A DNA stretch of 63,702 nucleotides, filler included, from Psammoneis japonica (lineage: Eukaryota): NCBI GenBank assembly GCA_008632985.1. It is 4 parts of 4 records of this genome, joined end to end, with 100 filler letters (N's around TTAATTAATTAA, not from the genome) between each part and the next. Parts side by side here need not be neighbours in the genome. Positions count along the whole stretch, not along the records: positions 1 to 20,079 come from QPGO01000451.1; positions 20,180 to 40,391 come from QPGO01000452.1; positions 40,492 to 60,607 come from QPGO01000453.1; positions 60,708 to 63,702 come from QPGO01000578.1. One strand, 5' to 3'. The translations under genes and the position numbers were made by a program. Below, piece by piece: positions 1-63,702 of this stretch. How positions within the stretch are numbered: the first letter of the stretch is position 1; each line of letters opens with the position of its first letter. The notes under the pieces are model-generated. The model was given only the letters and a program-made list of their open reading frames with translations. It did no database searches and was not told where the DNA came from.

Positions 1-289
1 AGTTTCCCAAACCCATGAACTGAAAATGTGTCTTGCAGTCAAGGTTTCTTTGTTGCACAACAGCATGTGAACTGCAAGTGTTGGAAATCCCTTCATTTCT
101 TTTGCTGGTGCATGTTTGACATGACAGTCTTCTTCATCATGAAAACAAAACAAAACCAAAATTCTGTCTTTAAAGTGCTGCTGCGCTTCCGCCCCGCAAC
201 TCCGGCAACAAGCCAACCCACACCCCCAGCACACCAATGGCGCGGCAGGAACATGTGACAATTGGCCAAGATCGGCATTGTCCGCAGAC

Positions 290-3200
290 GATGCCGTGCC
301 AAAGCAACTGGCAATCGTTCGTGTGCCGCGTAGAGCAAGGCGCTTGGCCTCCTTCATGCTCGACTTGAACATTGGTTTCACCACAGCCAGCCAATTCCGA
401 AGACGATGGGTTGAATGTGTGAGGTGTTCATCAACCAAATCGAACAATTGAGCCCTGTCCTTCGCAAGACATTCATCTGATTTTGAACAAATGGCTCGGA
501 CTTCAGCTTCGGCGTCTCTCCGCTGGGAGGACTTCCCAGTTTCCGAATCGTGGCCGTGTGCAGCATCGTCATGAGAATCCCACAAAGCCCACCATTGCTC
601 CCAGACATGACTTCCGATTGTTGCTGCCCAATCTAAACGTCGTTCTTTGTCCGAAAGATCTTGATGCAATCCGCTAGATTACAGATGAGCTCGCTGAGTT
701 ACATTCCACTCACGGGAAAAACGCCCAGTGAAGAGATGTCGCCAACCAACAGCATCCTGAGATCAGAAAATGGCCAGTGCACTCCTGTGAAGACTGTCGG
801 AGCACATGATTTCCTCTCGAAACCACATCTCAATTGATGCAAGGATGAAATCACGGATGGAAGGTGAAGTGTTGATGTCATCGCACTTTTTCCGCAGGCC
901 TTGTAAGAACTGTCTACGCCAATCTTCATTGTGGGGACACCGCAGGATGTGATCTCGGTCCTCCTTTGGATGCTGGCAGTGAATGCAACAATCGGGCCGG
1001 GTCGGATTGTGCTGGTGGATGATTTTGTCAGTTGGAAGTAAATCTTGGACCAACTTGACTGTGCTCACCTTTCTTCTAATGTTTCGAGACATCAGTTTGG
1101 AATGTGCTGTCCAGTCAATGGACTCACACACCATGTCAGACCACCCATGCTTTTCTTTCATGCAACGAATGAGCGCAGGACTGGATGCCTCGCATCGAAG
1201 AGTGGGCTTGAAATTTGAACCAACTGTTGCGTCTTGAACAACCAAATTTCCCATGCAATGAGGAGTCCTGGGGGCTGCCAGTGTGTTCCCTGAGAGTGTC
1301 CGTGATAACGACCCGCCAACACATCAGCACGCACGTTTAACTTGGCTGGCAACGAAAGAGATTTGAGTGGTGCGACGTCGTCTTGATGTCCTTTCACCCA
1401 CTGGAAGTCAACTTGCATTCCGGAAGACCCAGCAACAGAAAAACTTGAGATCTCGTGAGTAGAATGGTGTGTTTCGTGTAGCAAATCCCATTCTGCCGAC
1501 AATGTGTTCGCGACATGGTGTCGTTGATGGTAATCGCGAGCTCGGTTTGATTCGTCAAGGTTGTCTGGCAGAGGTGGTGCAGCAGCAAACTCGGAAATGT
1601 GCTGAATCAAAGAAAAGTTGTTGCAATGAAGATCCAAGCCAAGAGGAAATGTTGTTTGACAATGCTCCATCATCCGAAAAATGAAACGCAACACAGATGA
1701 GACACCACGCGCCTCTGCCCGACAAGAAGCAGGACGAAAACCAAATGCAGGGCCATCGCAGTCTACCAGAATGGTTCCAGAAACTGTTAGAGACCATCCA
1801 AAGGTGCCACAAAATTCGATCACCGATCCATCACTGCCAACAGCACCACGTGATGATCGAAGGCATTCCGCTGTTTCGAATGTCGACTTGTGCAAAGTGA
1901 CATCTTCAAATGGTGAAGCTTCCCACTGAGGGAGAGACCGCAGCATCGTCAAGAAATCATTCGGCGGCACATTGACATCTGGAACCGTGACAGGAGACAC
2001 GGACGAAACTGGTTGCCACCTGCCATCTTCCACAGTGGTTGCGATTGCAGGGGCAGCTGATGGAGACAAATCCTGCAATGTTTCTAGCTCGGACACTGAA
2101 TCCGCTCGGTCATCTCGCATCGAGAAAACTTGAAAACCTGAGTCAGTGCAGATGTGCAAGTGTCGTTCGTCTGGTTCGTAGCATGCCGGATGCGTCATTC
2201 GCACATCCAAAGAAGAAACTGCCCACTGCCCCAATGGACCTTTGAGAGTTGTTGCATTTCCCACACACAACAGGGAACACAACCTCTTCCACTGCTTCCA
2301 TGCCCGAGCAGACGGGCGCTGTTGTTCGACTGGATTCAACCTCGAGACTCCGCCAACCAAGGATCGTTTGCCTTCCAACGCACATTGATCGATGGACCGA
2401 CCATCCGGCAGAGTCATGTCTGACACGGTGAGAACATTCAAATAAAGTCTGCAACAGTTTGCCCATCGGATCTCGCGATTTGTAAAGATGCCTGAATCCA
2501 AAACAACATCCACAATGCATTGATCGTTGTCTCTTTGTAAAGGCAGGACGCCGGCATCATCAAAATCAATGCAAGCATTCACTCTCACAAGAAAGGATCG
2601 CAAGGACATGAACCATTTTGATTCTGCGTGGGGAAGTGTCGAATGCACGTCGCGAAGGAAACTGACTCCGGCACCCAAATGAAACTGCACCCAAGATGCG
2701 GTGATGAGAGATGGAGCCTGAGGTTGTCCTGATCCTCGCCAGTGTCGTAAGAACTGCAACACTTGGGCAACACCTTGCTCCACATCTAACGAACGAAAGC
2801 CCCCTCCTCCCAGGGAGCATGGCCCGAATAAAACATCACGCTTCATGTTTCGATTATAACCACATTTAGCAACGATGACACAAACGGCCTTTCGTTGAAT
2901 TTCCAAAAATTCCTTGGGAGCAAAATGTGCATTTGGGAGAATGCATGTCATGGAAGACAAGCAGCAAGCAAAGCAGTGGGTCCATGCTTCATGTCGGTCG
3001 AGAGGACATGAACGGAGAAACATTGCAATGTCATCACTTTTCTTCTTGAGAGCTGAGAATTGCATCTTTTGGCTGCCAATCGGAGCTTTGAAATGTCCCA
3101 AGGTTTTGTGTGATGAGCATGCCGACAGCTGTTTGCTTCGTCGACTGGTGGTCCTGTCGGCGGAGGCAATCTCGATGATGAGTTCGTCATTGCAAGGCCG

Positions 3201-6060
3201 CAGGTGAGGTTCACCGTCGTCCGAAAACATCCATTCGACAGTGTGGAAAGAACATTTGGGCAGTTCCAGTTCGTGGCCTGCGGCACTCAACAGGTCGCAC
3301 CACAATTGGTTGTCCTCCTGCATTTTGAACGCAAGTTCAAGCATGCAAGGCTGAGGTGATGCTCGAAAATCATTGACTTGTTTAGATGTGTCATCCACGT
3401 GTCCTCGGTCAAACATTCTCATTGCCGTCGTTCTGTCCGGAGTTTCAAAGAAGGCGCCGTGAGCGTTGCGATCAAAAACATCAAAAAGACTGTCACATGT
3501 CTGGCTCCAATCAAATGGAGACCTGCCACTGCCTTGCCCCGTCCCGAGAATCGGCAACTCTTCAGAATGGGAATGTGAAGTCGGAGACAATCCGAGGACA
3601 GTTTTCAACCAACAACGTGCTTCATGCAGCGCAGTGTTGGCGACTTGGGTCACCTTCTTGGGCATGCCGTTACTTCGGTTTTGGACAGCAACCAAAGCCG
3701 GGATGTTCCTGTTGTGACACGAAGTGCAATCGTCGTCGCTGTTGACAGCCGACTTGCGCGACACCCGACTGGTCTCTAGCATCAGTTCCTCAAGATAAAC
3801 GGGAGTCTGGGCATTTTGGAAAGGACGAGTGCCGTAAATGCCGGGGTTGTGCAGCCTTCGATGTTCCATGTTTTGAGCCAGCGCTCTCCACTTTACACCT
3901 GTGATCAGCTGGAAATCGGCTTCATAGACATGAACAACATGCAGCCGGTGGATTTTGGTGTTGCCAGGCTCCTTGAAAATCACAACGTTGACTGTGTCCT
4001 TCCAATGGTCAAAAGAGCAACCCCATCGTAAGGCACAATTCAGAAGATTGAGGCGAATTTGGATCAAAGTTTGTTGAGTGCTGTCCAACAGAATCCGATC
4101 GGAGTCATCTTCTTGATCTGAAGCAGGAGCGTCCGTGTGTTGATGAGGCGCATGCATGGCTTTCCAGTGCCCCAGATGCAATCCAGAATGTGGGGAAGTC
4201 GAAGTTGACTCTTTCCAGCTTTTTATCTTGCCCTCTAATTCTGCCTCGGTCAAATGTTCCGACACCGCAACAGGGGATCGGCGTTTCAAATGAGCAACGA
4301 GTTGAGCTGCAGCGTCATTTAGAGAAGAAGTCTCGTAATCTCCGTCAAGCATGAGTTCCGCCACAACAGTGTCGCCTTTGAATCCAAGGTCTAAAGATGA
4401 GGGAGGAACAGTGGGAGGAGTGCCATGCGCCTGCCCAAAATGCTTCTGGCTCCGCACACGAAGAGCAGTTGCAATGTCTTCTGGAGCATCGAGTGTCATC
4501 CAATCATCACATTCCTTGGGATGTGTGTCAGGGTTCTGAGGAACTTGAACGCTGTCAATGCCAACATCCCGTTCAGCCTTGCACGATTTGATCTTCTTGA
4601 AAAGTCGGACCATCTCTTCTGCTTTTTGTACATTGTGAATGATTGAGGCTTGTTTTCTGGACTGTTTGGTTCCTTCCAAATCGAGAGCTGCCATTTTAGC
4701 TGCCATTTCTCGTTCACGATGCACGACACCATCCGCTCCGATCCTCTTACAATCAGTTTGAGCTTCTCGCAGGGCTGCTTGGCATTCTTGCAATGTCTCG
4801 GGAACAACAAAGGATCCTTTGAGTTCATCACGAATTCGTTGAATTTGGGCGACTCAATCGATCTTGGTGCGCATCATGGAAACCATGCGAGAGAAAATGT
4901 GAGTGCGGTGATGAAGGTCTGCCAACTCCACCGACCAATCGGGTTCGCGATGACGCCTGCAACGTTTGGCCGCCGCTGAGGAAAACTGCAACAGATCGCG
5001 ATCTAATCTCTCTGCCAGGTCGTGATTGGGTTCGCTGAGTGCCAAGAGCTGTGCAGATCTTTCCAAAACAGAGCAACTCTCCAGCATGGGACCAACAGCT
5101 TTCAAATGCACTGTTGCCTGAGGTTCAGATGATGCTTGGATATCTCGAAAACATGCTTTTGGAAGATCGACCGTTGGATTGCCAAACAATGCCATTGTGT
5201 CAAAGTCAACGTAGTGCGCTCGGTGATCGGAAGTGATGCGACACCCAAAGGCCTTCGCACCCTCCCAATCTGACAGCAGATGAAGCTCCCAGCAAAGCCA
5301 GAACAAAGTCAAGGCGTTTTGATCCACGGGCATGCGTGGAGAACTCAGTGTTTCCAATTATGTTGAAGAATGCATCGGACAAATTAAACCGTTGTGCCAA
5401 GCTCGCCAAAGAATCCGTGTCAAATTCGAAGTCCGTGTCAAAGTCGCCGAACAAGACCACTTCTCTGTTAGATTCAGCCGTGAACTCTTGGAGAATTTGA
5501 GACAAGTCTGTGCAAAAGGCCTTGCGTGGGTCCACCACTTTAGCTCCATTCTGTCGAAGGAGGCATTGTTGCTGGGCGAACGCGGCAGTTTTCCCTGGCT
5601 GGCGTTGGTTCTTGGCGCAAACTCTGCAACACGAAACGAACACAACTTGTCATCCATTGTGGCCGTCGAATGCTTGAACAGACCATTGCCCGAGGGGGTC
5701 GGAAAGTTGGGATCGGTGCCGTGCAGACACAGAATTGCATGACAAGAGAGCTGTTCCGCCAGGTTCATGTTGCGTCGAGAAAGGGGTGGCACTGGAGAAA
5801 AAAGTGCCTTGGCTGTGCAGCAGAGAGCCAGACACCGTGGACCTGCATGCTGAAAGAATGTCAAATTGGGTTGTGTCCAAACACACTTCCAATGTGCCAA
5901 CAATGTCGGCTTGGATTTCGTCAGCCACTTGGCAGCATTCGTTGACATCGCCACCGCGCTTGTCGAACTTGCACCCATTGGCATTGAATGTGTGTGAACG
6001 TGTGTGGTGTGACAACTTTGGGCAAAAGCCATCACCGACAGGTTCATTGGTTTTCAGACT
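290..6060 (-). pseudogene. pol: LINE ORF2: endonuclease, reverse transcriptase, RNase H, zinc knuckle; several frameshifts/stops
   Basis: Pieces 5650..6015, 5206..5643, 4854..5357, 1158..4793 and 763..1254. The C-terminus (GWRHLFTGRF...WWALW...HG) continues past an in-frame TGA to about 290. Confidence 0.85.
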
Positions 6061-6358
6061 CGAGAAATCGATGCGTCAATCAGCAGGCGGGAGATGATTT
6101 CGTCCATCTAAAAGGGATTGCCGTGCGGACACGGTCTCAGGAGAGGGGTCACCACTCATGATTGGGCCGTGCTCCTCCAAAGAGAAGACTGGGGCTTGTG
6201 GCGAGGAAGCAAATTGGAACCGCAATGGAGGGAGAAAGGTCGGTGCTTGCCAGTCCGTCGGAAAACCCGTGCAAGGGATGGTGAAGATGTGTTTTGATGA
6301 ATGTTGGGAGGGTGCCCAATGGTTTGTGGAGATGGGGGCAGCGAGATCCATCTCCTTG

Positions 6359-8075
6359 CTAAAAATCCGAATCTTTCCCATCGTTGCTGCGGTCGGGAGT
6401 TTGATTTTGGTTTTGCCATTTTCTCGTGGGACTAGCGGACGGGGCTGGCTGAGAGGCTTGGAGCAACTGGATGATCTCATTCATCTGATTCTGCATGCCT
6501 GAAAGTTTTTCTGAACATTGTGATTGCATGTTGTGCATTTCATTGGCATGTTCATCGTGTGGTTCACGCAGGGCCTTTTCATGACTAGATTGCATGAGGG
6601 TCACAGTGCGCTGAACCTCGGCCAATTGGACAGATGCAATCGATGAGCTCAATGATGATTGAGCAATCTGAGAATAAGAAGCCTGTGGAGACGCGATGCC
6701 AGGACAGCCGGTGCAACCAAAACTTGGAGTTTGGAAGGATGGAGGATTCGCAAACATCTGAGGAGGGATGGGGCGTGCAGCCAACTCACCATGACCTGAA
6801 ATCGCGGAGCGGTCATTGCCTCTTTAGGGGAAGGGTCAGGTGGGCGGGTGTTGCGAGGACCATCCACATTGGTCAAAGGAGACACGTCTGAAAAGGTGAG
6901 AGACTCCAGGCTGTGGATGCCAGCCAACATGATCGATTTGCTGGTGTCTGAAACTTCATCAAGAACACCGGAAACCTGAGGAAGGTCTTCGAACGGAGGG
7001 GTCGGATGAGCTTCTTTAGGCAGATTCGGAGTTTTGTTCAGAACACACGTTGAAATCTCAGCTCGGGCTTTTTGAATTGAGTTCGATGGACTGGGATGTT
7101 GTGTCTGCCAGTGGACAATGCGGAAGGGGAAGGGAAAATGTCAATTACGCCCTGAATTGCCTTGATGTGATTCTCCAAGCAGAACATCACATCCAGTGTC
7201 GTGTGCAGTGACGGCACGACGAAAGCATTGTTGTTGTGTCGGGCTTGTGTTTTAACTGCATTGTAGAATGCGAGCGGGGACACGCAGCTGGTTTTTGCCA
7301 CAAGAATGTGAGTCGGAAGTTTGTCAGATGCATGTGAGAGGGTTTTTGCTGCGGTGCGACAGTCCTCTTGTTGAACTTCCACCAAAAAGGTCACCGTGCA
7401 AATCGGAGCTGATGTTCTGTTGTCATCTGCTCGAACGGAAGTGGGAGCCAAGCGAAATTTCAGCATCTTGGTTTTAAAATCTCTGAGATCTTTGACAAAC
7501 AACTTCGTCGCAGCATCAATGGGAGTGTGTTTTGACGCAGTTGCAATAAAATGTGCTGGACTGGCCGTGTCAATGACAGATTCGTTCCAGCAATGACGCT
7601 TCAAACCCATGTTGTTTGTCTCCAAAATGTTTTGGATGTTGGGGTGGGAACAAATGTCACGCAGGGGTGCTTTTGCAAGAATGCGGCGACACAAACGATG
7701 AGTGACGGGACGGTTCTCGCCATTGCGAGTTGTCGAAATCTGGAAATGGCATTCGTGTTGGAGGGCAGAAATCCAGTCGGCGATGTTGACATTTGCAATC
7801 CTGGCATTGTTGTCATCCAATGCCTGAACTTCGTTGTTGAATGCAAACAGGATCTGACTGAGAACTTGGAGATGAGAGGTGACGAGGGCCATTGGCTTGC
7901 AAGTGGCTTCTGGACCACGAATGTCAAAACGAACAGTTGTCTCTTCGAACTGTCGTTCTTTCGATTTGGATGAAGGTTTGAGGGATGCTGGGTCGACAGT
8001 GGTGTCGTCAGCGGTGGTGTTGTCTTTGTTTGCAGCAGCGGCATTGCTGCCGGCAGTGGCGGAAGATGACGCCAT
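6359..8075 (-). pseudogene. LINE ORF1, frameshifted, with C-terminal coiled-coil-like segment
   Basis: ORF 7038..8075 plus fragment 6359..6784 (VQLAEVQRTVTLMQ...MQNQMNEIIQLLQ) lie directly upstream of the endonuclease. Confidence 0.6.
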
Positions 8076-9109
8076 GGTGATCGGTGTTTCTACGGGGAGC
8101 CTGGTGTTGAAAACACGCAGGTGAATTCAACACTGACAAACGCAGGAAAGCAGTCTTCTTCACCATGGCTTGCTCATGCATCAACTTGGGTCATTTTGTG
8201 TGGCATGTGATGTGCAGCCAGTGGCTCTGGTTTGCTCCTTGATGGTCTGAATGCTCTGCTCAACTTCCTCAACATGGTCCTTGGAATTTGCAGACACAAA
8301 GATTTGCACCATCTGCAACTTCCGTCAGCATGTCCTTGAACTCGGGATCACACTTGATGAAGTCAATCTTGAATGGGGGCATGTTGCAGTGCCAGTGAAT
8401 CATGTCCAAATCTTTGCAAATGTGCTCATGCTTCTTGGACTTCACCTCACACTTGATCTGCACTTGATCATCAATGGCACACAGCAGCTTGGCACTGCAC
8501 ACTTCCACAATGCCAATGCAGAGGGTTGCACCTTCTCTCTGCTGTTTGCAAATTTCAGGCTGTTGAGGTGACTCCTCTTGTGGGCATGGCATGCACACTT
8601 GGTCTTGCTCACAGGAATTGCTGGCTTGGTGCACATGCACACAGACTGATGTCACTGGCCTTGAACACCACAACTTGTTTGCAAGCCTTCCCATCCAGCA
8701 GACAGAGCTCATTCACTGCTCTGTTGTTGCGCACAATGCAGCACTTGCTCTTCACATCCTTTGGCCTCAGGATGTTTGCTGTCAACTTCTGCAACCCAAG
8801 CTTCACATCACCCCATCCTGGCACAGTGCAGTCTCTGTCCAAAGTGTCCACTCCTGAGCTGGTGGACAGATCAATCTGACTTGATGCCTGCATCAGTTTG
8901 GCTCAAACTCATCTGCAACCTTTCATTGATCTGCTCATCTGCTTGGAACCCATGCCATGGAACATTTCTCTTGCTCTTGCTGGAGCTGGCTGATTGGTTG
9001 TGTCTGCGGGTGTCAACACTGATGTTGTTGCTGCTCACTGATGAACAGTCTTTGTCTCTCATCTGTGTGCAACTCATGACATCAACATTTGCCCCTGTGC
9101 TTCATCCTC

Positions 9110-9720
9110 TTTGGAGAGCCCAGTCAGACAAAGGATGGTGTCAAACCCACTCTGTGGAACACTTTTCAAGAGATGCATCTGCTGTGAATCTGGCCTGCTG
9201 GAAAAGTGTTGCAAGGAGAATTGTCCTCCTCCCACATGGGCCATTCAGATGGGAACCTGCATTTGGAAATCTTGGTGGGAGCTGTGGGAAGAACAAAACC
9301 AGGAAGTGCATGGTCACAATGCAGGCACCAGAAAACCATCACAGTGTAAACAAGCCAAAGAGCTGAGCTCACAGCTGCACACAACAAATGCCAAGAGCAC
9401 CTTGCCAAGGACAGAGACTTGCTGTCAGACTCAGTGGAGGATCACATGTCTCACTCCAGCACCTTGCAGATTGTGAACTGGATCACCATGGCAAAATTGC
9501 ATGTTCAAAGAAAGCCTCAAGAAGGCAAAGTGCTCCATGCTTTGTGGCACTTGCTCTGCTGCCAGTCATTTTGGCAGGGTGTCACCAGCAGTGCCCATCC
9601 CGGCCAATCCCTGACAGCTTCTGCTGCACTTAACTGTGCACTGGAAGTGTGGGTTAGCCAGTGCTGGCCTGGCTGGCAAAGGAGTGGTGGCACTTAAAAT
9701 TTAGATTTGTTTTTTTTCAT
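9110..9720 (+). mobile_element. 3' fragment of a related LINE (ORF2 C-terminus + 3' UTR)
   Basis: WAIQMGTCIWKSWWELWEEQNQEVHGH aligns with the C-terminus of the LINE at 100-8150 (WAATIGSHVWEQWWALWDSHDDAAHGH). The 3' UTR motif ctggaagtgtgggtt is shared. Confidence 0.7.
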
Positions 9721-11429
9721 CTGTGTGTGACTCTGTCCCCTGGTGTCCAGTTTCCTGCCAGTTTTCTTGTGCCTGTCCTTCTACAAGAAGATCTTGTCCT
9801 TGTCCTTGCAGTCCAGGGACTGGTGGTTTGTTTTGCCACAACAGCAGAGGCCCACTGCAGCACCACCTTGGTTGCCACTCTGGGCATGACTTTGGTCTTG
9901 TGGGTTCTTGCACTTGTGATTGGTCCCGTCTCCATTCTTGTTGTTGGGGTGTTGTTCATTCTTCTTCTTGTTGTTGTGATGCTTGCAAGGGTCATTGTCC
10001 TTTGGACAGTTCAGCAGCACATCCATTGCCTTCTCAAGGTTCTTCAGGTGTGAGTCCCTTCCCAGGCTGCAATCTCTCACAATGCTCCACTTGAGGCTCT
10101 TGCAGAAGCAGTTGTTGCTGTTCTCCACACAGCCCATGTCTCAAATGCAGCTTCTTTCAGCTCTTTCTCCTGCATTGCGTCAGTGCAGTCCTTGTGCTCT
10201 TCTTGGTGTTCTTGATGAATCCATCTGTCATCCTGCTGTCAAGACAGTTGTTTGCAGCATCTTGTTGATTCTTAAATCTTGACAGGTGGTCATTCAGCAA
10301 CTCATGAACAATGGCACCCAGTGGTCAGCAGTCACACTTCTTGTGCAAAAAGACAATTGCTGCTCACATTTTCAGAACACAAAATGCAGCTCTCACTCAA
10401 CTCTGCTCTTTGTTGTCACAAATGGCATGCCAGCTGGCACACACCTGTGATCTGGACTCTGGCTGGAGAGAGTCAACAAAACCATGGGCATGGACACTTC
10501 AAACAAGACCTTCTCTCTCAACAGATTTGGAGTGGCCTCTAGATTCCATTTGGCTGGCAGGCAGAGTGGTGGCTGTGAGCACAAAAAACAAAAGCAGCGC
10601 CGCAGCAAGCCAGCAATGATGCTGACACTCATCATCCCACTGGCAGTGAAAAGAAGGCAACAAAATGTGTCTGCATGAGGGTGGGGGCTCCAAGTCCACT
10701 GAGGCAAGAAGGGAGATTGTCTTGACAGAGAATGAGCAACTCACTTGCCATGGGTTGGATGTTGAGAGAGGCATCAGCAGAAAACGGCAGCACAACATGG
10801 TGTGGCTCATGCCAGAAGTTGGTCAGTGAAAAATGAATTGTCAATGAAAAATGAATGAGTGCTGCATCCAAGCACTTTTGTGACACCGGGACCTGATGGA
10901 CCAAGAAATGAAGGCAATTTTTTCATTGTCAGCCATCAAGGAGAAAGAAATGGCATCAGACCTCCAGTGCTTCAGGCAGAGTTGGTGAGAAATGATGACA
11001 GATTTGATGTCATTCAACAGCTGTTAGACACAACAGGAAGGACAAAAAGAGTGGGGAGCCTGCCTCAGTGGCCCAAGTCCAAGCAAGATGACACTGGCAA
11101 CAAGTGCAGGAGTTGTTGGCACTTTGTTGTTTTTGGGCTTGTTCTTGTTGTGCCTGCAACTGTTCTGGGGTTCATGCTTGGCCAGAGCAAGACCAAGCCA
11201 CCTGCTCAGATCCTGGGTGTGAATCTAGAGTGGCTTTGGTGAGGATGTGTGCTTCTGCACTTCCAGTGTGCACACCACATTGGTCAACAGCACTGTTGCC
11301 ACATTTGTGGACAATGAATGACAACCTTGACCCTGAAACCATCATCATCTCTGAACCTGAGGGCAAAGAAATGTCTCACAAGGACAGCTGGATGGAAGGA
11401 GGCATGGATTGTGGGCCAAGTGTTGCTTT

Positions 11430-11630
11430 GAACCCAAAGGCCCACATGGATGGCTCATGGATCAAGCAACAAAGTGTGCTCTAAATTGGCAGGTCAGAGT
11501 GGGTGTGTTGGCATGTTGGTGTGACTCTGACTTTGCTGAGAACAGAGGACATCATGCTGCAGGCACCAACTGGAGTGCCTCCATCTTCTTGTGAGTGCTT
11601 TTAGCTGAACTGCCAGCTGCTTGGGTGCTC
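11430..11630 (+). pseudogene. Possible highly decayed LINE RNase H remnant
   Basis: HMDGSW followed, after a frameshift, by SAF-AEL resembles the DGS...SxxRAE RNase H motifs. Weak. Confidence 0.25.
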
Positions 11631-51294: not shown

Positions 51295-51311
51295 GACATT
51301 CTGTCACTCAA

Positions 51312-52615: not shown

Positions 52616-52641
52616 TTAACGGCCCTGATCATGGGGGAGTG

Positions 52642-53073
52642 TGCAGTGTGCCTCGCCACTGGACAACACGGCGAGACCGTGCACAAGCCTCTTGTGCGTG
52701 ACAACGCAGTGTTGTCAACACGTGCCTGGGAAGCACGACCACAGGAGGGTGTGGCTCTAGATCTTAGGCAATTCCAGAAGGATGCTAAGAGAGCATCCGT
52801 GTGAAGCACACTGGCCCGTCGTCTGGCCAACGATGGCAGCGTGATTCCACATGATGACATCACTCGTGCACAGCGCGTGATGGCTTGATTCGCATGATCC
52901 ATGATGCGAACGCATGATCGATTTGATGCGATCCAAATGCGAACGAATGGGGATTTGGCAAGATTCCCCACTCGCATGATCCCATTTTCTCTGCTCTAAA
53001 CCAGCTCATAATTTTCACAACGACAAAGTCGTGACACATCTTCTTTTTCAGCGCCTGGCACATGCACAGGGCA
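52642..53073 (+). repeat. 3' LTR of Gypsy-2
   Basis: Direct repeat of 46060-46491, preceded by the PPT. Confidence 0.95.
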
Positions 53074-56000
53074 CATGCCATCAAGCATCTCTTCCGCTGT
53101 CACCAGACCAAACTCAGAAGTTGTCCAGTCTCGTCATGCAAAGAGAGCTTCATCAATGGCAGGACAGGTGGGGTCAAATGCCATCTCGGTGTTGTGATGC
53201 CTCTTGAGATGCACAAAGATGTGGCACACCTGGTCGAGGTGCCCTTCTCGCAGCATGGCCAAGTGCAACAACATCATGGACACCTCAAGACAAATGTCGA
53301 CATGCCCCAGCTCAACCATCCAGTGCAGGACACCAATGAGCAATTGACAGTGTGCAGCATCAGTCAGAGTCAATTCCTTGCTCGTGTCATGCTCAGGATG
53401 ATGCGAGCTGCTGAGCGGGGTTGGAGCCTTGGCAGGCAACTTCAAACCCTTCGACTCCAGAAAAGTCTCGACATTCTCAACCAATGCTTGAGCATGCTGG
53501 GAGGAACTGAATGCCCATGCTTTGGCCCCATTCTCAAGTTCCACCTTTCGCAGGTGTCCTCCAAGGCACAGACTTGGAGGTCCGATTGATGACTCCTTCA
53601 GTGGGAAGAACTTGCCAATCTCCCCTTGTAGAATCTCCTCTGCATTGTTGGAGATACACAGAACATCGTCAGTGTACATCAGGGTCAGCCTTGCAAGGCT
53701 TGAAACCAAGATGGGACATGCACGCACGCAGATGATTCCGGAAATCTCATCCCGCTGACTTGCCACCACACAGAGCCCGACGAATGAGGCCTTGCTTGCC
53801 AACATTCTCGAGACCAAACTCTGGGCCACATGTGATGCAGTGCTTTTGGGATGAGGGAGCCTGAAGGCACGCATTCTGAATGTCCGCTGCCATCATGTCA
53901 ATGTTGTTCAAGGCAGCGTACGTCAGGGCAACACGCACACTTTCCCCAGAGACAATGCCAGCGTACGTCAACCCTTCGGGACTTGAAGTCTTGTGTCCAT
54001 CAAGGACCCATCTAGCCTTCCTAGCCATGGTCATCTTAACATCAAAAGTCAGGTGACCTGACTGTTTGGACCAACCAACAGGAGTCGGAGTGTCATCATC
54101 CAGGATCTCAAATGCAACACCCACGTCACGCATCTCCTTCTCGATTGCCAGTGCCCAAAGTTTGTTGCCATTCTGGCGGTCAAATTCAAGTGCCTCTCCA
54201 ACTGTCCCAGGAAGTTTGACTCCACACTTGTGCGTCACACGTTGCACACGCACCTTGACTGCAGATACGATGACATCTCGCTTGCAAAGGGTGTGCGGCA
54301 TCCACCATCAAAAAGCCGGTTCATTGTCGATGCCTCGGGCTTTGGCAAATTCCGCAGTCTCCACTGGGTGCAATTCCTTCATGTCCTTCAGGGAGACCCA
54401 AGACTCGGTCCCATCCTTCCACAGAACTAGGAATTTCCAACCGCACATTGTCTTGTGCAACCGTTTCTGCTTGCCAACCTTGGCGCACATGTTGTCTTTG
54501 GTCACTGCTGCATCATCTTTGGCGAAATCGAGTGTGCTGTCAAAAACATTGAGAGTGCAGCCCTCCCAGTCAACTTGAGAGAGCAAGTTCTCAGCTGTGA
54601 CGTTGGCGGCATGTTCCTTCACCTCCCCATCAGGAAACTCGACTTTGTAAACCAAAGTGTTCATGATCGGGTTGTCATTGTGCGTGTCAACCGATCAACC
54701 ATCTGGATCCACAGACCGGCCAATTACGCGGACCTGCTGGAGCTTGTCACCCTGAGGCAGAGCAACCTCAGCATGGATGAGTTGGTCACACAAGGGGGTT
54801 GGATTGATGGCATTCCCAGTGGCATCAACTGGGTCATCAAATTCAGGTTGATCTCTGGGCTTTTCATCTGCATCCCGATGCGGAAGGAACTGCTTGCCTG
54901 CAGAGGACACGGAACAAGCTGCAGAGCCCCAGCGTGATTCAATGCACTGGTCAAAAATCTCACGCTTGCATTTCTCAGTGTCGCTGTTCAACTCAGCAAC
55001 TGAAAGGGGTCAGACGGAATGTCGTGGCACAACATTGCCATTGCCCTTCAGCACCCACTGAGCCATGTCGTTTCCTTCTCCTTTCACAAGGCCTGGCACA
55101 CGCCCGAGTGCCTTGCGATCAAATGGAAAGGGATTGGTGTGCTCACGGAAGTGGCACCATTCATGCCATCCAAATTGAGCAAGGTTGGACATGTTGCCTT
55201 CTTCCCCTGTCACAGAGAAGTGCGGGTTCCTCTCCTCAAGTTGGAACAGGTTCCGGGCTGTCAAGTTGTTGGTTCTTGCCTGTCACTCAAAGCAGCAGTC
55301 CCAGAAAGGCAAAGGGCACAAGGACTCTTTCATGTCCTTGTGTGCCACCTCCTTGAGCAAGCCAATGTGCAGTTCAGCACAATTCGACAGCAGCCCAAGG
55401 CTGGCTCCAATGGAGTGGAGAAATTGTTGAATCTCATCAGACTTCTGTGCTGGGTCACTGTCACATGCAATTGCCTCCGGTGCACCCACTTCCTTGGCAA
55501 ACATCTTGAGTGCCTGAGGTGTCTCAGATCAAGCACACATGGGCACCACATGAACGAAGCCCTTTGTCAGCAACAAACAACTGCATGCATGAGTGTCCTC
55601 GTGTGGACTTCCCAGCCTTCTTGCTTGCAAAGAAAGCATCCATGAAGAAATGCTGGGCAATTCGTCAATGCTGCAGCATCCTGTTGTTTGTTGAACAGTT
55701 CCTTGAGAAAGCTGGGTCTTGGGTGCGTCAAAGGAGTTGAGTGGTGTTGTCCATGGTCCGCTCTGCATCCTTGGTGCTGATTCTCCAGATCTTGGACAAG
55801 TGTTCTGGAGATGCCCCCTTAGACTTGGAGGCAGTGGTTCCTCCAACATGGACCTCGGGATCAGATTCAAAATGCTCCACAAGATGGTCAACAATGTCTT
55901 CAAGTTGGACATCCTCGAAAATGTCAAAATCAACATTGTCATTCTGACCCGAATCATCTTGAAGTCCTGCCGTTGTGGATCCTACAGAGGATGCAAAAAC

Positions 56001-57798
56001 GCCAATGTCGCGGCAGTCCTGTGGACCTTTGGCAAGTGAGATGGGATCAAGAGTAGCCGAGATGTCACACATGACGGCATGGGAGTTGTCAGCCTCCCGC
56101 ATGACTCCTGTGCATCCACTCAGGTCATCACAAGCCTCAAAGCGATCAATGGCCGACAACTTGGAGTCAACAATTCCGGACTCAACACTTGACATCATCA
56201 ATGACAGCCGCAGGTCCTCGTCTTCATCAGGCAGGTCTTCAACCAAAATCCTGATCCAATCACGTTTGTCCGACATGTTCCCTTCCCAGTCCAACATGCT
56301 TTCCTCATTCTGAGCACAGGAATCCGAGTGGGGATTCCACAAGTGCCCAGATGGAGTCAGGACCAGGACGTCATCAGTGTCTTGCATTTCTTCCATCATT
56401 GGTCATCTGGATGGAAAGCACGAGAACACACCCCACAGAGACAGTGGGATCCTAACCTTCAAGTCCGGGAACACAAGGGCATGATTGTCCTCTGTTGGTT
56501 CCCGTCCTTGGACTTGTGTCTTGGGAACATCGTTGACAATCACCCCTGCTTCATGCAGCACAAAGGGTGGCAACAGATTGTGGTCCATTGCCGGAACATG
56601 CAGGGCATTGTGCAGGACCAACAAGTGGGTTTTCAGGGAGTGCGGACAGTCGCATGCCAAGAGAGCGTCAACTGTTCTCACATCTTTCATCAACTCATGC
56701 TCTGGACTGAAAGGACTGACTTGAGCTGTGCGACCGGTGTTGTTCAGCACACAGGACCCCTTGCCAACCACAACCATGTTAGCGTGAGAATCCAGTTCGG
56801 TGCATGTTTCACTCTCATTGCAAGTCTCTTTGCTTGTCTCTGCAGTGACATCAGAGACTGCACAGTGAGCAACAAATTGATTGGGAATCAGCGACTGCGA
56901 TTCCATGGCACAGATGGCACATTTTCTCCCCTCAAGCAAGGAGACATTGGAGCACAGCACCATCCCGTTGTTTCATTTCTTGTTGCTGGCACGCCGCAGG
57001 ATCGACTGCAACGTCACCAAGGGTGGCTTGAACTGAACCACCGAGGCTTGCGCCGGGGCTGGTGTCACCGTCGGTGGTGGTGGAGGAGGCAGCGACACGG
57101 TGGCTGGAGCCGAATTTGATGCCGCCTGAACAAAGGAAAGGAGGCAAGTGCCTGCCTTGGCATCATCAGACTCAGTGTTGGCCTTTTCATCTTTCTTCTT
57201 GTAAGAAGCTAGCTCGGAGGCCACAGCTTCCGAGATCATCTTCTTGATCTTCTTCTGCGAACCAGCCGGTTGTGTCTTGTGCTTGCCCTCTTTCTTCTTC
57301 ATGGCAGAAGAACCCTCTGAGGAGTGCCATTCTTTCAGTTCGGCTTTCTGGTCAGAGTTCAATTGTCGACACTCAGAATGAGTGTGGCAGCATAACTCCA
57401 CACCAGATTTGCCAATCCCAGACTTAATGGCACCAGAAACTTCAGTGTGAGGCCATTTGGCAGCTCGTTTCTTGGCCACAGGGTCACAGGGCAAGAGGTG
57501 TGCCGCCGCTGCCTCGAAGTCACTGCGTTTTCCATTTGGTCCTGTGTCATTGCGGACCAGAGCCATCACGGCCTGCAGTGGAGCATTGGAGGTCTCGATG
57601 GCATCCAACAGGTGCGTGACTCTCGTGCACTCGTTCAGGAGCTGGAAGGTGACATGCTCAGCACACTGCTGCATGGAGACAAAGGCATTGCGGTGCTGAG
57701 AGACAAAGCGGTCAAGGGAGAAATTCAATTGGGCTTTCCACTTCTGAGTGTGGATGAAGTCCTCCTGCTTCTTAAATTCAGCTGCCCATTTATCCTTG

Positions 57799-58177
57799 TG
57801 CACTGTGCTCGAAGAAAAAGCACAAACGAAAGTAGAGTCAAGCATGAAAAGTGAAAATTATGAGAATTATTTCTGTGCAATCATTTTGGGTTTCTCCGAA
57901 CGAGTTCTCAATGGCCTAAAGCATTTGCACTGTCCCTGCAGACAAGAGGCCTTTCGGAGAATAAGATCGTGACAACAGATTGTCCGGATACGATTGACAT
58001 TGACACATGAGATGTCAACATCATCGTACGATCGCACTTGCCTTTTTCGACATCCGATCAACTCTGTGTGATTGATCTGTCCTTCGTACGAACCCACGAT
58101 TGACGTGCGATTGAAATGTCAACTTGTTTAACACATGGACACACATGTGCATGACGCACACAACAACGCACATTGCA
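57799..58177 (-). repeat. 3' LTR (379 bp) of Gypsy-3
   Basis: Homologous to 35922-36300. Confidence 0.88.
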
Positions 58178-59248
58178 CTCGCCTCCCTAATTGCACATTA
58201 GAGTCAGTTGTTAAACGGCGTTGTTCGACGGATGTTGACAGTGTCAATGACGTCACCGCGTTTGATCTGCACTGTGCCATCAGTGTGCACCGTTGTCATT
58301 GCATGCGGTCCAACATGGGGCTGTTCTAATTTCTGCGAGTCTTTTTCGAGTGGCATCTTCTCTCCCACTCTGCACGTGTGAGGAGTGTGCCGAGCATTCT
58401 CTTGAGCATTGTTTTTATTTATGATTTCTTGTTTTCGCTGCTGGATTAATTTCCAGTCTGCAACATGTTGGACGTTAAATGTCATGTCTCTGTTAAAGAC
58501 CAATTGTCCAGGTGCAGCTTGCGCAGCAGTGTGATGCGCAGAACGCACTGCAAATGCTGCTGCTGATGACATTCCAGCGAAAGGATCCTCAGCATCCAGA
58601 GGTGTGTGTTGCAAATCAAGTGCACGGATCATGTTTCCGAGCACTTGATGCATGTGCTCAATGATTGCATTTGCTTGTGGATTTCGTGCAGTTGCAGGCT
58701 TGACTCCAATGCCACAATCAGCTTGCACCATGTCTTTAAATTGGTGTCCGATGAACTCACTTCCACGATCACAAGCAATTGACGATGGCCAAGGGCATCT
58801 GCTTGACCATGTTTGTTCTAACAGTCCAGCTGCAGTTGTGGATTCCTCATTTGGAATTTCCACAACTTCAAACCATCCGGTTGCCGGATCAATCATTGTC
58901 AAACACTTCAAGACTGGGGGTTCTTTCTCCCCCTCATGACGCATTTTGTATGGTCCAATGAGATCCACACACAGTCGTTCCCATGGCACTGATTCTGTGC
59001 ACTTGGGAGGTAAATGTCCACATTTTTTGTGTTTCTTTTTTGAATTTCTGGCACGTCTCACATTTTGACACGTGTTTTTGCATGTCTTCACGCAAGGCAG
59101 ACCACCACAAGTGTTGTGAGATTGTTTCTTCTGCTCGATTTATGCCAGGGTGAAGAAGGTGCACATGACACCAGTCTGTCACTGTTTTTTGTAACGTCTT
59201 TGGAACGACGATTTTATCCTTGTGACATGTGAGCAACCGGTCTCGCTC

Positions 59249-59638
59249 GACGGGTTCCAGTCCCAGGTGGGACTTTTTGTGACATTTGCCCCGTAGAATT
59301 CTACGTGCGAGCTCTGTAGTTCGTACTCTGGTTGATGGACACACTTGTCTTTGACATGAAATAAATGGCCAAGTTTGCAGTGCATGTGCCTCTGTTTGTA
59401 CTCAAAGTTTTGGACAACACGCCTGCCCTGCGCCATTCTTAAGACACTCGAGAATGGCGTAGAAGAAAAAAAATGTTAAAAGTTGCTGAATGGATCGCCT
59501 GACATTTGTGCTATAAAATGATGCAAAATTTCGCCAAAATCACGTAGAAATCTACGTGCGCGACATACGACGCGATTCAAAAAACTGTCGATGTCACAGT
59601 TCAGCAGTACGAGGTCCCACCTAGACCTGGAACGCGTC
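59249..59638. mobile_element. MITE, 390 bp, same family as 30580-30975, TSD GCTC
   Basis: GACGGGTTCCAG...CTGGAACGCGTC; GCTC at 59245-59248 and 59639-59642; removal restores TFRGGERDRLL. Confidence 0.92.
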
Positions 59639-59869
59639 GCTCGCCTCCACGAAAAGTCTTCGCATGAAAGGTTTTATCAGACAATTTGGAGAGAATGTCT
59701 TCACCCCGTTTTTGTTCAGCATCAAGAACTTTGTAATTTAACGGAAAGACATTGTCGTAGGATTTTGGTGGGATTTTTTCAGCTGACTCTTCTGTGCTGA
59801 AGTTTTCCACAGGTTCCATTTTTTTCATGTGTCCCAAAGACGTCATCTTCAATGTCGTATTTTTAAGTG

Positions 59870-59985
59870 ATGTCAAGTGCATGCATGTCATGTCGCATGA
59901 TGTCATGTCACACAAAATGATGTGACACAACATCACATGATGCAATGTGACATGACATGATGTGAGATGACACAGCAGATGACGA
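59870..59985. repeat. Low-complexity ~5-nt periodic repeat (atgtc/atgac/atgat)
   Basis: atgtcatgtcgcatgatgtcatgtcacac...gtgacatgacatgatgtgagatgac. Confidence 0.7.
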
Positions 59986-60607
59986 CATTGTAAACACACC
60001 TTTCTTCTTGTGCCTTTTGGCTTTTCCTTTCACTCGGACATTGAGAGCCTCGGGCAAAAACTCACCAGACATGACAAACAAGGTCGCAATGAAGTTGTTC
60101 CCAACCATTGAAGAGTGCTCCATGCTACAAAGGAAAAGGTCACAGGAAAGAAGAAGCATCACGTGCACCATGAAAAAGAAAGGATCTGGGACAGCTTTGG
60201 AGCTTTGCCGCGTGCGTGACGTTGCATTTGTTGAGATGGACACACAGGACAGCCGTGCGCGACGTTGCATTTGTTGAGACAGGACAAATTGAGCTTTGGC
60301 TCAGCACTGGTTCAGCAAAAATCAATTGCCCTTTGGATGCTGGTTCAGCAAAAAATGTCTTGGTTCAGCACTTTGTCACTTGTGGTTTTTGAATCATTGT
60401 AATTTTATTCTTTTGTTGTTGAGAGACAACAGTGTGTCTTTAGAGATGATGCGCTTCATGTTTTTGAAGGCTTTTTGTTCTGTTTCGGTCCACTGCCACT
60501 TCACTTGGGTTGAGGTGAGTTTGGCCAAAGGAGTTAAATCAAGGGATGTCGCACACATGAAACCTTTGAGTTTCTGTGGCATGTCCTGAATGTTGGGCAG
60601 AGGAAAC

Positions 60608-60707: not shown

Positions 60708-61195
60708 TGGCATTGTGTCATTTGCACCACACTTGCATCATGCTCTGCTCAACTGCTGCGGGGTTGGCAACTGCTGCTTGATTGGCAACTGCTGCGTGAT
60801 TGGCAAAAAGCAATTTAGAGCCCGTGTCTTGCATGTGTCACACACACATCATGCCAGTTTGGCATGGTGTCGTTTGCATCGTGCATGTGTCATGCTCCAC
60901 TCTGGGTGGGCATCAACACAAGTTGGCATGGTGTCGTTTGTGTCATGCATGCACCATGCTCCACCATGGGTGGGGAAAAAGTTGGCAGTGCCGTTTGCAG
61001 TTAAAAAGATGCAAAAAAGTTGAAGTTTTGATTCCTGCAAGGTGTGCGGTGCCGGCGGGTGTTTCCCCTTGTGCGAAGTGCAATTCTGAAAGTGACGAAT
61101 GTGCGCATGTCAGCATGTGCTGTGCCAGGCATCGTCGCATCCCTTTTCTTTCACACTGGGTTGTTTCCCAAGACTGCCTGTGGATTTCATGCACA

Positions 61196-63296
61196 ATGAA
61201 ACTGAGTCAAGAGCAGCCAAGAATGTCAGTGATCAACCACATCAAGAATGTGCCAGGAGCAAGCAAGAATTTAATAGGACATGGGAAGCGGGCGGCGGCA
61301 AACATCAAGAACCAAGCAGAGACACCGTTGCAACACGGTGTGCTGTTGCAAGTGAGAGTTCTAAAAGCATTTCCCTGTGCAAAAGATGGCGGAAAGGATG
61401 CTTTGTTTCTCGGAACGGCCGTTGCTTGTCATCCATGCTCTGCAAGCAAAGCCGTTGCTTGCCACCCGTGCTCTGCAAGCAAAGCAGGCAAAAGACTAAA
61501 AGCACCGGACAAAGGGTTGTGCCGGGTTCACTTTGATGGTGGAGACATGGATGACATGGACCCAGAAGAGTTGCTCCAGTGCATCATGCTGTGTCACAAA
61601 GAACGGCAGCTGTGTCTGCTGGAAGAAAACAAGAAAACAGCAAAGGCCCATCTGCCTGTGTTGAGAACCTCAGCAGACCGCGGCCTCGGGATTGAAGCCA
61701 GCCTCAGCGCCATGCAAACGCTCTTGTCAAGGGAGAACCCATCACTGTCCAGAGCTCAAATTGAAGAACTTGACAAGGAAAGAGAGCAACGCTGGATGCA
61801 GTGTGAAGAGCACAACATCAACAACAACATTCCTTGACCCACCAGCCTTCTGGAATGCGGACACGAATTTTGGTGGGACAACGAAGCAGAACAACTGGAG
61901 CGGTTTGTCTGCAAGCCTCCCCCAGACAGCTGGTCCAGGAAGCTCGATGATGTCATTTGCTTGCACTCACTCGACATCATCAACTCACTGGATGGAGGGA
62001 ACATTGACGGCATTGCAGACAAATGGAAGGACCTCCAGCTTGCACTGGAGGATCTGGAGACCCATGAGCACTGTCGATTAAAGAATGAAAGAACAATCGG
62101 TCCTTCATTGTTGCACAGCATGATCGCAAGAATGTGCATCAAAGTCTGTTTGGCCAACCCACACGAAAGACTCAGACCCACTGGAAATCAGGGAGGAAAC
62201 CACGATTGTGATGTGCAAAAGAAGGCGCTAAAAACTTTGCCGGTAAAGCAAGATAAATGTCAAGTCATTGTGCGATTGGAAAAGTGAAGATTGGAGTGCG
62301 TTGAGAGGTGAACTGAGCGACATCGTGGAGAAGATTGCAGGCACCAAACCACCAAAGGAGAAAGGGGAGATGGATCACAGCATGGACGAACTGGCTTCAT
62401 GTTCTGAGCACAAAGAATTGGATTTAAAATTGCCAATCCATGGCGCACTTGCGACAGCGAGGAATGTGATGCATGTCTCCGACCGCAAAGGGGGGTGCAC
62501 TGAGCAATTGTCCATGTCTAGAGCGGCTGCTGCAGAGTGCATGCAAGTGACCAAAGACAACCACTGCGTTCCTGACATTGCTCCATCAAGCTGACTGACT
62601 GCACAACTGGTGGCACATTCCTTGCCACACAGGGAGACATTCAAGAATCTGAAAATCATGTCCGCAGGGCTTGAACGAGACGCAGCAAATGGATTGGCTG
62701 TCATTCACAAAGCCGCAAGAACCGTCTTGTCAGTGAAACACTCAAGGGAACGGGACATGCTGACAGTGGAAGCAAGCACTTTCCGGAAGCATTTTGGCCC
62801 ACCAGAAGATCGGGGTGTCACTGACAATCCAGACTCATCCCATGATTCAGATGACAATGACGAGGATGCATGTGTTGCACCCGAGCTGTGTTTGACAAGC
62901 TTCCAATTTGATCTCATGCATTTTTTAGGACTCTGTGCGTCGGACACAAGAGATTCACACCAACAAGGATCTTTCTGTGAAACAGGAGGAAGCACACTGT
63001 CATTTGCTGTGACCCACACAGGTCCAGGCAGAAGCAGCAGACGGCAGCGCAGGAAGTGGACAGACAAGGAAGTGAAGGAGTTGAAGATGGTCTGCGACAC
63101 TGTTCGCCGACACAATCCTCACAATCCACGCATCTGGAAGACTGTCTTGGACCATTCGTCGTTGCTCCGGCAGTGCAAGAGGACCAATGTGGATGTGAAG
63201 GACAAAATTCGAAACATGGAAAGGAAGAGGAAAAGAGAAGAGAAAGGAGTGAGCAGCTGGCTAGATGGAGCCATTGTCCAGCCAGGGACGAATTGA
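61196..63296 (+). pseudogene. Decayed gene with N-terminal Tudor-like motif and C-terminal telobox-type Myb/SANT domain
   Basis: RVLKAF..LFLGTAV..LCRVHFDGGDMDDMDPEEL (~61355-61575); RRKWTDKEVKEL..IWKTVL..RTNVDVKDKIRNM (63048-63218); broken into four ORFs; 33-bp tandem duplication at 61418-61483. Confidence 0.6.
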
Positions 63297-63702
63297 GCGA
63301 CAGTGGTGCAACTGATGCGGTTGTCTCATTGCCACCCAAACAAAGTTTTCTAGAAAAATTTGCATGACAAATGTGACATCAATTTGATCAATTTTAAGTG
63401 CATTGGAGTCGCTGTGCAATGAAGTCACACAGACCTTGTTCAACCACACTGACAAGTTGTTCGGGAGCCACCATGCAATGGTGCTCCGTGCAAGCTCCTT
63501 TGCTTTGACGAGGAGCCTCACAAGCAAGGGTGAAAGTCCTTGGGAAGCCCTGTCCAGCACAGACTGCCAAACGACCCCTTTCCCAGTCCCCCTCAGCAGC
63601 TCTTTGTCAAAGTCCAAATCAAATGCAACGGCATCACGATGAAGCCACTGAAACTTGGCACATTGCTCACAGGCAATCTCAAAGGGGCCCTCTCCGCATG
63701 TG

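Follow-up and report, generated by a model that had tools for sequence, protein, structure and literature searches.

We analysed a 63,702-nucleotide stretch of DNA from Psammoneis japonica (hereafter the window; four contigs of assembly GCA_008632985.1 joined end to end), in which the dinucleotide TpA is scarce and TpG and CpA are enriched. We consider it likely that TpA hypermutation of the type measured, as TpA>TpG/CpA changes, in integrated viruses of the alga Bigelowiella natans (Mettrop et al., bioRxiv 10.64898/2026.01.13.699255) acted on the transposon DNA of this window after integration, and that it came near to saturation in four retroelement groups.

Scarcity of TpA and the direction of change

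The four contigs occupy positions 1-20079, 20180-40391, 40492-60607 and 60708-63702. They are joined by runs of N around a TTAATTAATTAA spacer, and 9 of the 626 TA dinucleotides counted in the window fall in these artificial TTAATTAATTAA spacers. The observed/expected ratio of TpA is 0.165 over the whole window and 0.077, 0.19, 0.243 and 0.087 in the successive contigs; 20 mononucleotide shuffles of the window gave 3786 +/- 49 TA, as against the 626 counted. The corresponding ratios are 1.54 for CpA, 1.58 for TpG and 0.64 for CpG. TC and GA both stand at 1.06, indicating that TpC is not depleted. The two enriched dinucleotides are nearly equal in number (6067 TG and 6285 CA). When the window was divided into 63 one-kilobase intervals, 60 had a TA ratio of 0.34 or less, the exceptions being 39001-40000 (0.70), 47001-48000 (0.72) and 48001-49000 (0.64). 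Among 80 related Gypsy loci taken from metagenomes, the median of this ratio is 0.71 and the minimum 0.34.

The same bias is visible in the stop triplets of the six frames, which comprise 2737 TGA, 473 TAA and 307 TAG. Long open frames are plentiful on both strands (53 of at least 200 amino acids, for example 1161-4853 on the minus strand and 15970-18471 on both strands) because the process removes TAA and TAG and makes no stops. Most of these frames are not genes, and dead elements appear intact to a program that looks for open reading frames.

All recognisable homology in the window is to transposons. Four elements were used to determine the direction of the change:

1161-4853, minus strand: LINE ORF2-like frame of 1231 amino acids, open despite hypermutation
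22939-30053, plus strand: Copia-1, with a pol frame at 26364-29915
35920-40391, plus strand: Gypsy A, with a pol frame at 37879-39714
46058-53075, plus strand: Gypsy B, full length, with a pol frame at 47630-50443

Their proteins were aligned with public homologues, and the residue of the window was scored at columns where the homologues agree. The Gypsy B alignment held 60 homologues; for Copia-1 we used the 69 of 900-2100 amino acids among 150 listed, and for the LINE the best 13 of 20, several of the 20 carrying PF03372, PF00078 or PF13966. Since tyrosine is coded only by TAY, whereas His is CAY and Cys is TGY, a conserved Tyr that reads His or Cys gives the change a polarity, TA>CA or TA>TG. 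Gypsy B keeps Tyr at 3 of 21 conserved Tyr columns and reads His at 11 and Cys at 7; other conserved columns are kept at 348 of 412. In Gypsy A, 4 of 17 Tyr columns are kept (6 Cys, 5 His) and 243 of 300 others; in Copia-1, 1 of 11 (6 Cys, 3 His, 1 Phe) and 160 of 168 others; and in the LINE, 3 of 16 (4 Cys, 3 His, 3 Phe, 2 Leu, 1 Arg) and 264 of 330 others. Tyr has therefore given way to CAY or TGY at 18/21, 11/17, 9/11 and 7/16 columns, respectively. Overall, Tyr makes up 0.7% of the residues of the LINE frame versus 2.6-4.4% in its 13 homologues. Every one of 120 Gypsy homologues retains at least 78% of 27 Tyr columns, of which the two window copies retain 12.5% and 20%. The opposite change, from a conserved His or Cys to Tyr, was seen at none of 16 columns in Gypsy B.

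Single-step codon changes were classed in the two Gypsy elements, with preference for the TA reading when the ancestral codon was ambiguous; the Tyr counts are independent of that preference. The 58 changes in Gypsy B comprise 18 TA>CA, 18 TA>TG, 8 of the CpG type, 4 other transitions, 9 transversions and 1 that could be either transition or transversion. Gypsy A has 54, comprising 14 TA>TG, 9 TA>CA, 3 of the CpG type, 8 other transitions, 19 transversions and again 1 of either kind. The share of TA-type changes is thus 36/58 and 23/54. These results support the conclusion that TA was lost through a mutational process, not through selection, and on both strands equally. We also looked for strand runs of TG or CA outcomes, a sign of processive one-strand editing; the z values in three elements were -2.03, +1.37 and -1.79 (combined -1.41), with no clear clustering.

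The initial annotation of this DNA had proposed that repeats lose TpA to TpG and CpA on both strands, in the direction opposite to that of fungal repeat-induced point mutation (RIP), and had named beforehand an excess of TA>TG/CA in the polarised spectrum as what should be found; the counts above agree with it, including the scarcity of TA in all four contigs. Its interpretation is partly supported: that the process is aimed at repeats or heterochromatin, and that adenine is the base edited, would go further than these counts. The altered peptides that it had cited are also present. These are, in Gypsy, CVDD (38686), HLDD (48854, given there as 48853), MGHCHI (38515), WGKHEH (38578) and CADAS (39130), and in Copia, NAHL (28419), KALCGL (28512) and TCGSEF (29394), with an intact KALYGL at 40837-40854 on the minus strand of a second element, Copia-2. 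Its extension of the scarcity to classes of element holds for LINE, Copia and Gypsy. It is not fully confirmed for a YR-retrotransposon, a label backed by an Atlas lead only, or for 'non-retro genes', represented by one weak Myb/SANT match.

A side observation concerns the public Copia homologue P0240, in which 4 of 9 conserved Tyr columns are occupied by Cys and none by His. This may be a one-sided case of the same signature, or chance.

Timing, sequence context and other copies

At integration the two long terminal repeats (LTRs) of an element have the same sequence, both having been made from a single template. Those of Gypsy B (46058-46493 and 52640-53075, 93.3% alike) show 29 mismatches over 436 aligned bases, all of them transitions and 26 of them within pyrimidine-purine (YR) dinucleotides. 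The differing sites include 8 at which one LTR reads TG and the other CA, 8 with CG versus TG or CA, and 2 with TA versus TG or CA. From the CpG counts, decay of CpG is expected to account for about 0.35 pairs among the 8 TG/CA pairs; the remaining ones are TA sites that mutated independently in each LTR. Because the two LTRs differ by such pairs, the change must have occurred in DNA after integration. We estimate from the pair counts that each LTR had about 21 ancestral TA sites, of which a fraction of about 0.77 mutated per copy, and that non-YR positions diverged by 0.0078 per copy. The ratio of the TA rate to background is then roughly 186 (63-900), the range being wide because just 3 background differences were observed. 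The TA sites of the Gypsy B LTRs are heterogeneous, a few being intact in both and the remainder mutated in both, and this looks like a burst that saturated the sensitive sites, not like steady decay.

Sensitivity depends on the neighbouring bases. With the spacers and two little-mutated tracts (described below) masked, the fraction TA/(TA+TG+CA) is 0.017 for RTAY, 0.033 for YTAY, 0.040 for RTAR and 0.072 for YTAR, with extremes of 0.003 at ATAT and 0.092 at TTAA. YTAR makes up 43% and RTAY 11% of the TA that was retained; within the two little-mutated tracts these shares are 17% and 30%. RTAY is thus the most sensitive context and YTAR the most resistant. The products depend on context as well: polarised Tyr sites with a 5' A gave 8 His and 1 Cys, and other sites gave 14 His and 18 Cys (Fisher p = 0.024). 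YTGY, equivalent to RCAR on the other strand, accounts for 0.557 of YTGY+YCAY versus 0.510 in 74 control loci; as both strands were counted, the p-value computed for this difference is too small. Context and products together fit an edited A in 5'-TAY and, equally, an edited T in 5'-RTA. The natural substrate of TadA is the UAC of a tRNA anticodon loop, a context that would suit a TadA/ADAT2-like enzyme.

Two tracts within the Gypsy elements have largely escaped. Inside Gypsy B, 47601-48600 has a TA ratio of 0.96 versus 0.36 and 0.34 in its flanks, with sharp edges. It contains all 3 of the conserved Tyr codons that this element has kept; downstream of it, 0 of 21 conserved Tyr positions are kept and 19 read His or Cys. 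The corresponding tract of Gypsy A, 39001-39846, has a ratio of 0.73 and less sharp edges, and is followed by a single N at 39847, which suggests a short-read scaffold. Recombination, template switching, protection of the segment or chimeric short-read assembly of a family of several hundred copies may account for these tracts. Judging by the tract with a ratio of 0.96 and by the TA-bearing sister copies described below, TA depletion is not an equilibrium of the whole family.

TA and CpG ratios are correlated over the 63 intervals (Spearman 0.67). In Copia-1, CpG stands at 0.84-0.92 where TA stands at 0.04-0.18. Copia-1 and Gypsy B together have CpG of about 0.85-1.0 with TA already at 0.04-0.35, and only the old 8-20 kilobase (kb) stretch has lost both. 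The loss of TA thus precedes that of CpG, and CpG decay (CG>TG/CA) would be a second, slower process in the same DNA.

Reads were examined in three runs. In run X1, 97% of the sampled 31-mers of 8001-18000 were present. Contigs from this run, compared with 40600-60599, matched 53.3-57.3 kb without a difference and at a depth of about 27-38; over the transposon parts the summed depth was in the thousands. The 788 copy variants found in this way are nearly all transitions (175 A>G, 175 C>T, 176 G>A and 170 T>C, with 7-15 of each transversion). Among 40 of them that were listed, 32 are changes between YR dinucleotides, and 11 have TA in other copies where the window reads TG or CA. Run X1 thus shows accurate reads and TA-bearing sister copies in the same data. 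Runs X2 and X3, from the same sample, contained almost no words of the stretch that was searched, and no RNA data set was listed as containing it.

The Gypsy alignment was used to scan metagenome contigs; 426 loci were confirmed, of which 80 were kept, and the homologue P0001 served as a ruler for Tyr positions. At the Tyr positions of P0001, His or Cys was found at 13 of 18 in locus L036 and at 15 of 21 in locus L063. Expressed as a fraction, the two window copies score 0.68 and 0.61, the median of the 82 sequences is 0.09, and loci L055, L071 and L031 are intermediate (0.41-0.42). L036 has a TA ratio of 0.09-0.23 over its positions 501-3000. The TA retained in L036 and L063 taken together is YTAR in 34 of 65 cases and RTAY in 0 of 65, as compared with 25% and 26% in the other 74 loci. 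None of the DNA matches of the 80 loci to the window exceeded 76% identity or 464 bases in length, and L036 and L063 had no DNA match to it. The same signature, in the same context, is thus present in unrelated Gypsy copies of records from other projects.

Other stretches of the window

The remaining features are as follows:

1-20079: contig 1, TA ratio 0.077, with 101 TA
8001-20000: the most depleted stretch, TA ratio 0.01-0.10 and CpG 0.05-0.21 per kb
30919-35765, plus strand: long frame, possibly a DIRS-like (tyrosine-recombinase) retrotransposon, TA ratio 0.07-0.29
40492-45606, minus strand: Copia-2, whose DNA is 66-76% identical to that of Copia-1
53273-57274: low-copy stretch, TA ratio 0.03-0.12, with a weak RVT_1 match at 53137-53892 (E 0.028)
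57799-59828, minus strand: Gypsy C fragment with integrase domains, 86-88% identical to Gypsy A
60708-63702: contig 4, TA ratio 0.087, with 16 TA and a weak Myb/SANT-like match at 62595-63293

A Pfam scan of 181 frames of at least 110 amino acids, with a lax rerun on 19 frames, found no host gene, only retroelement domains and matches at chance level; Rfam and tRNA scans of the window gave 0 matches each. On contig 1, the LINE is flanked by weak Pfam matches to an endonuclease and to zf-RVT at 5653-6075 and 766-1323. The Pfam frame scan found no recognisable domain in 8001-20000, where the TA that remains is chiefly in TTAA, TTAG and CTAG. A perfect microsatellite, (GTT)32.7, lies at 19708-19805 within this stretch, the most depleted in both TA and CpG.

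The LTRs of Copia-1 lie at 22939-23219 and 29772-30053 and are 95.7% alike. A 181-base tandem duplication (2.0 copies, 95% alike) at 29871-30234 lies at the end of the 3' LTR. Over two aligned blocks, Copia-1 and Copia-2 differ at 71 TG/CA discordant sites. The stretch at 30919-35765 consists of one frame of about 1300 codons broken by two in-frame stops (32254 and 33448), followed by a frame of 392 amino acids. It had no Pfam match in standard or lax scans. In its nearest Atlas clusters, RVT_1, RT_RNaseH and Dam occur in 10-63% of the members, which we take as a lead only; the Dam-like domain of these neighbours is of the adenine methyltransferase type, as in DIRS-like elements. In two Atlas searches Bacillariophyta was the commonest taxon, but on the strength of 1-2 members, too few to carry weight. 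The low-copy stretch is possibly an old retroelement relic.

Within Gypsy B, a contig of run X2 (depth 161) links 46548 to 47257 and omits 708 bases of the gag region. The junction has the ends CG..GC, which are not those of a canonical intron, and may reflect a deletion derivative or a transcript; the X2 contig set is of the size of a transcriptome.

Known systems and rival explanations

RIP changes C to T at CpA, thereby making TpA, and depends on repeats and on a sexual stage. It shares with the window a transition hypermutation of repeats at the DNA level, on both strands and with a dinucleotide preference, that kills transposons. The difference lies in the direction, as RIP creates TpA and the window has lost it and gained CpA and TpG; the values found here (TpA 0.165, CpA 1.54, polarity TA>CA) are the reverse of C>T at CpA with TpA enrichment. 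ADAR hyperediting and APOBEC3 likewise produce transitions of the deaminase type with a neighbour preference (5' U for ADAR), aimed at repeats and viruses. They act, however, on RNA or single-stranded cDNA, are strand-specific and would leave LTRs identical, whereas the products in the window are symmetric, not confined to A>G on the transcribed strand, and the Gypsy B LTRs are discordant at 8 TG/CA sites. Decay of methyl-CpG gives TG and CA from a palindromic dinucleotide and is also acting in the window as a separate component (CpG 0.05-0.2 in 8-20 kb). It cannot remove TA or turn TAY into CAY or TGY, lags behind the TA loss and leaves that loss unexplained. In the dinoflagellate A. carterae, a TET/JBP homologue makes 5-hydroxymethyluracil (5hmU), a silencing mark enriched in transposons, and earlier work cited there found thymine to be replaced preferentially in TA and TC (PMC11572971). 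This system resembles the window as an enzymatic DNA modification that is enriched in transposons and reported to prefer T in TpA. It differs in being an epigenetic mark for which the parts of that paper dealing with it report no mutational outcome (PMC11572971), and in its preference also for TpC, which is undepleted here.

The closest parallel is B. natans. The initial annotation knew of no described eukaryotic system of this kind; that claim fails, as exactly this signature has been measured in mutation-accumulation lines of this species (10.64898/2026.01.13.699255). In a full-text literature search the preprint was the sole description of such a process, the other papers concerning only RIP, ADAR and APOBEC. 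In the preprint, 15 mutation-accumulation lines yielded 302 nuclear point mutations, of which 231 fell in one giant-virus and one virophage region. The rate was about 6e-7 per site per generation in the viral regions versus 3.5e-10 elsewhere, integrated viral DNA mutating about 1000 times faster than the remaining genome. All but one of the 231 (230/231) were A>G or T>C, and every one of these lay at TpA. Only some lines were affected; the baseline spectrum was ordinary and hypermutation was limited to the two regions. The same source lists 124 depleted clusters as well as 324 TpA-depleted coding sequences, the latter enriched in reverse transcriptase (RT), endonuclease-RT and DDE domains. Its authors propose an ADAT2-like adenine deaminase from homology alone, and themselves draw the comparison with RIP (10.64898/2026.01.13.699255).

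The window has in common with that case both TpA>TpG and TpA>CpA, on both strands, in DNA of foreign origin and at a rate orders of magnitude above background, together with a lasting enrichment of CpA and TpG and depletion of TpA; the domains enriched among TpA-depleted genes in B. natans (RT, endonuclease-RT and DDE) are likewise those of transposons. The changes here, too, are chiefly A>G or T>C and lie at TpA, in the Tyr columns of four elements, in the codon classes and in the LTR mismatches; the two products are balanced, both in the codon changes of Gypsy B and in the window counts; and the LTR ratio, rough as it is, lies far above baseline. The two cases differ in stage. In B. natans the events are de novo, in two viral insertions where TpA is still at about half the genome level, whereas the window holds a near-saturated fossil signature in LINE, Copia and Gypsy copies. 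The window adds to the B. natans case the preference for RTAY over YTAR, the proof from an LTR pair that the change came after integration, and the co-occurring decay of CpG.

In the mechanism that we propose, the window contains transposon copies, namely a LINE, two Copia, three Gypsy and probably one DIRS-like element. Once these had integrated, TpA in their DNA would have changed into TpG or CpA on one strand or the other, and this would have gone on until hardly any sensitive site was left. Such a process may be directed at foreign or silenced DNA and would then act as a genome defence that kills elements through the loss of Tyr codons and of others that contain TA, while introducing no stops. 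For a restriction to foreign-derived regions, as in B. natans, the unmutated tracts and the TA-bearing sister copies would be indirect support at most. As for the chemical step, a TadA/ADAT2-like enzyme might deaminate adenine to inosine. Several points weigh against this account. The match to the B. natans system is one of signature only, and the sequence fits editing of adenine or of thymine equally. All parts of the 63 kb are depleted, the low-copy 53.3-57.3 kb included. Recombination, or chimeric assembly of the several-hundred-copy family, may have produced the unmutated tract, and if the assembly was built from run X1, as it may have been, the agreement of that run with the window would not be independent. 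Finally, the Copia-1 LTR pair has 0 TG/CA discordant sites, though almost every internal Tyr codon has been converted. The mutations may predate the latest retrotransposition of this copy, or few TA may have been present in its CG-rich LTR.

Two alternatives rank above the rest. The edited base could be thymine, if a TET/JBP-type enzyme marked T in the TpA of silenced transposons, as 5hmU or a derivative, and mispairing or misrepair then led to T>C. This rival concerns the chemical step only and is compatible with targeting. A>G in TA is T>C in TA on the other strand, so every count fits both, and the 5hmU of A. carterae transposons, with its preference for T in TA and TC, provides a precedent (PMC11572971). 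We nevertheless judge it unlikely: the relevant parts of that paper (PMC11572971) do not describe any effect of 5hmU on mutation, TpC is undepleted in the window, and the B. natans authors, from homology only, favour adenine deamination (10.64898/2026.01.13.699255). The other alternative dispenses with defence altogether. If TpA were hypermutable genome-wide and without targeting, dead transposons and other neutral DNA would lose TA, and active elements and host genes would keep it by selection. The depletion of all four contigs, of the low-copy stretch and of the domain-free 8-20 kb agrees with this, and the window offers no unaffected neutral DNA. However, Copia-1 retains 160/168 other conserved residues but 1/11 Tyr; sensitive sites are saturated where resistant ones remain, as after a burst; unmutated tracts with sharp edges lie within mutated elements; and in B. 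natans, according to the preprint, the baseline is ordinary and hypermutation is limited to two regions in some lines (10.64898/2026.01.13.699255). Untargeted hypermutability seems to us quite improbable.

The other rivals are far less probable. ADAR-like A-to-I editing of retrotransposon transcripts, fixed by reverse transcription, would account for the 5' T/U preference, which the preprint's discussion remarks is ADAR-like (10.64898/2026.01.13.699255), and for a Copia-1 LTR pair without TG/CA discordance. Yet the coding-strand products of Gypsy B are symmetric (18 TA>CA and 18 TA>TG), its LTRs differ at 8 TG/CA sites despite coming from one template, and stretches without a recognisable retroelement are equally affected. 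Because of the strand symmetry and the LTR differences, editing of RNA before reverse transcription is largely refuted, and we regard it as very improbable. A sequencing or assembly artefact, in which base calling would render a TpA with a modified base as TG or CA, deserves scarcely any credence. Random TG or CA at the same site of two LTRs is indeed the pattern that a strand-dependent miscall would leave, and X1, as noted, may underlie the assembly. Still, the k-mer contigs of X1 cover 97% of the sampled 31-mers and agree base for base with the low-copy stretch; that read set includes copies with TA for 11 of the 40 sites listed; the signature recurs in two metagenome records that come from other projects; and the B. 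natans mutations arose, by the preprint's description, in Illumina-sequenced lines (10.64898/2026.01.13.699255). Hardly more can be said for GC-biased gene conversion among repeats or for selection against TA. The changes do go from A/T to G/C, and repeats could recombine ectopically, but they are confined to TpA, other A>G changes making up 3/58 in Gypsy B. Selection, for its part, would have had to destroy the catalytic Tyr (YxDD to CVDD or HLDD), an outcome not favourable to the element. We therefore give this last explanation almost no weight.

TpA hypermutation of integrated transposon DNA thus remains our preferred reading. To our knowledge, RIP was long the only DNA hypermutation outside animals known to kill repeats, and it is confined to fungi. 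A second system, whose chemistry is the opposite (A:T to G:C at TpA), is known to date from a single 2026 preprint on two viral insertions in one alga; the window shows that its signature can wipe out whole LINE, Copia and Gypsy families and that the process has a measurable extended motif. The mutated frames remain open, so that gene finders are misled. The base-editing field would also have an interest in an enzyme from nature that acts on A:T pairs of double-stranded DNA within a defined context. A simple screen for Tyr to His or Cys detects the process in environmental contigs and could map it across public data. We tentatively suggest, somewhat short of holding it probable, that TpA editing, instead of being peculiar to the viral insertions of one alga, is a RIP-like defence present in several protists, including uncultured ones known from metagenomes, which would saturate every class of retrotransposon soon after integration at 5'-TAY, faster than methyl-CpG decays, by means of a DNA-acting adenine deaminase or a thymine-modifying enzyme.

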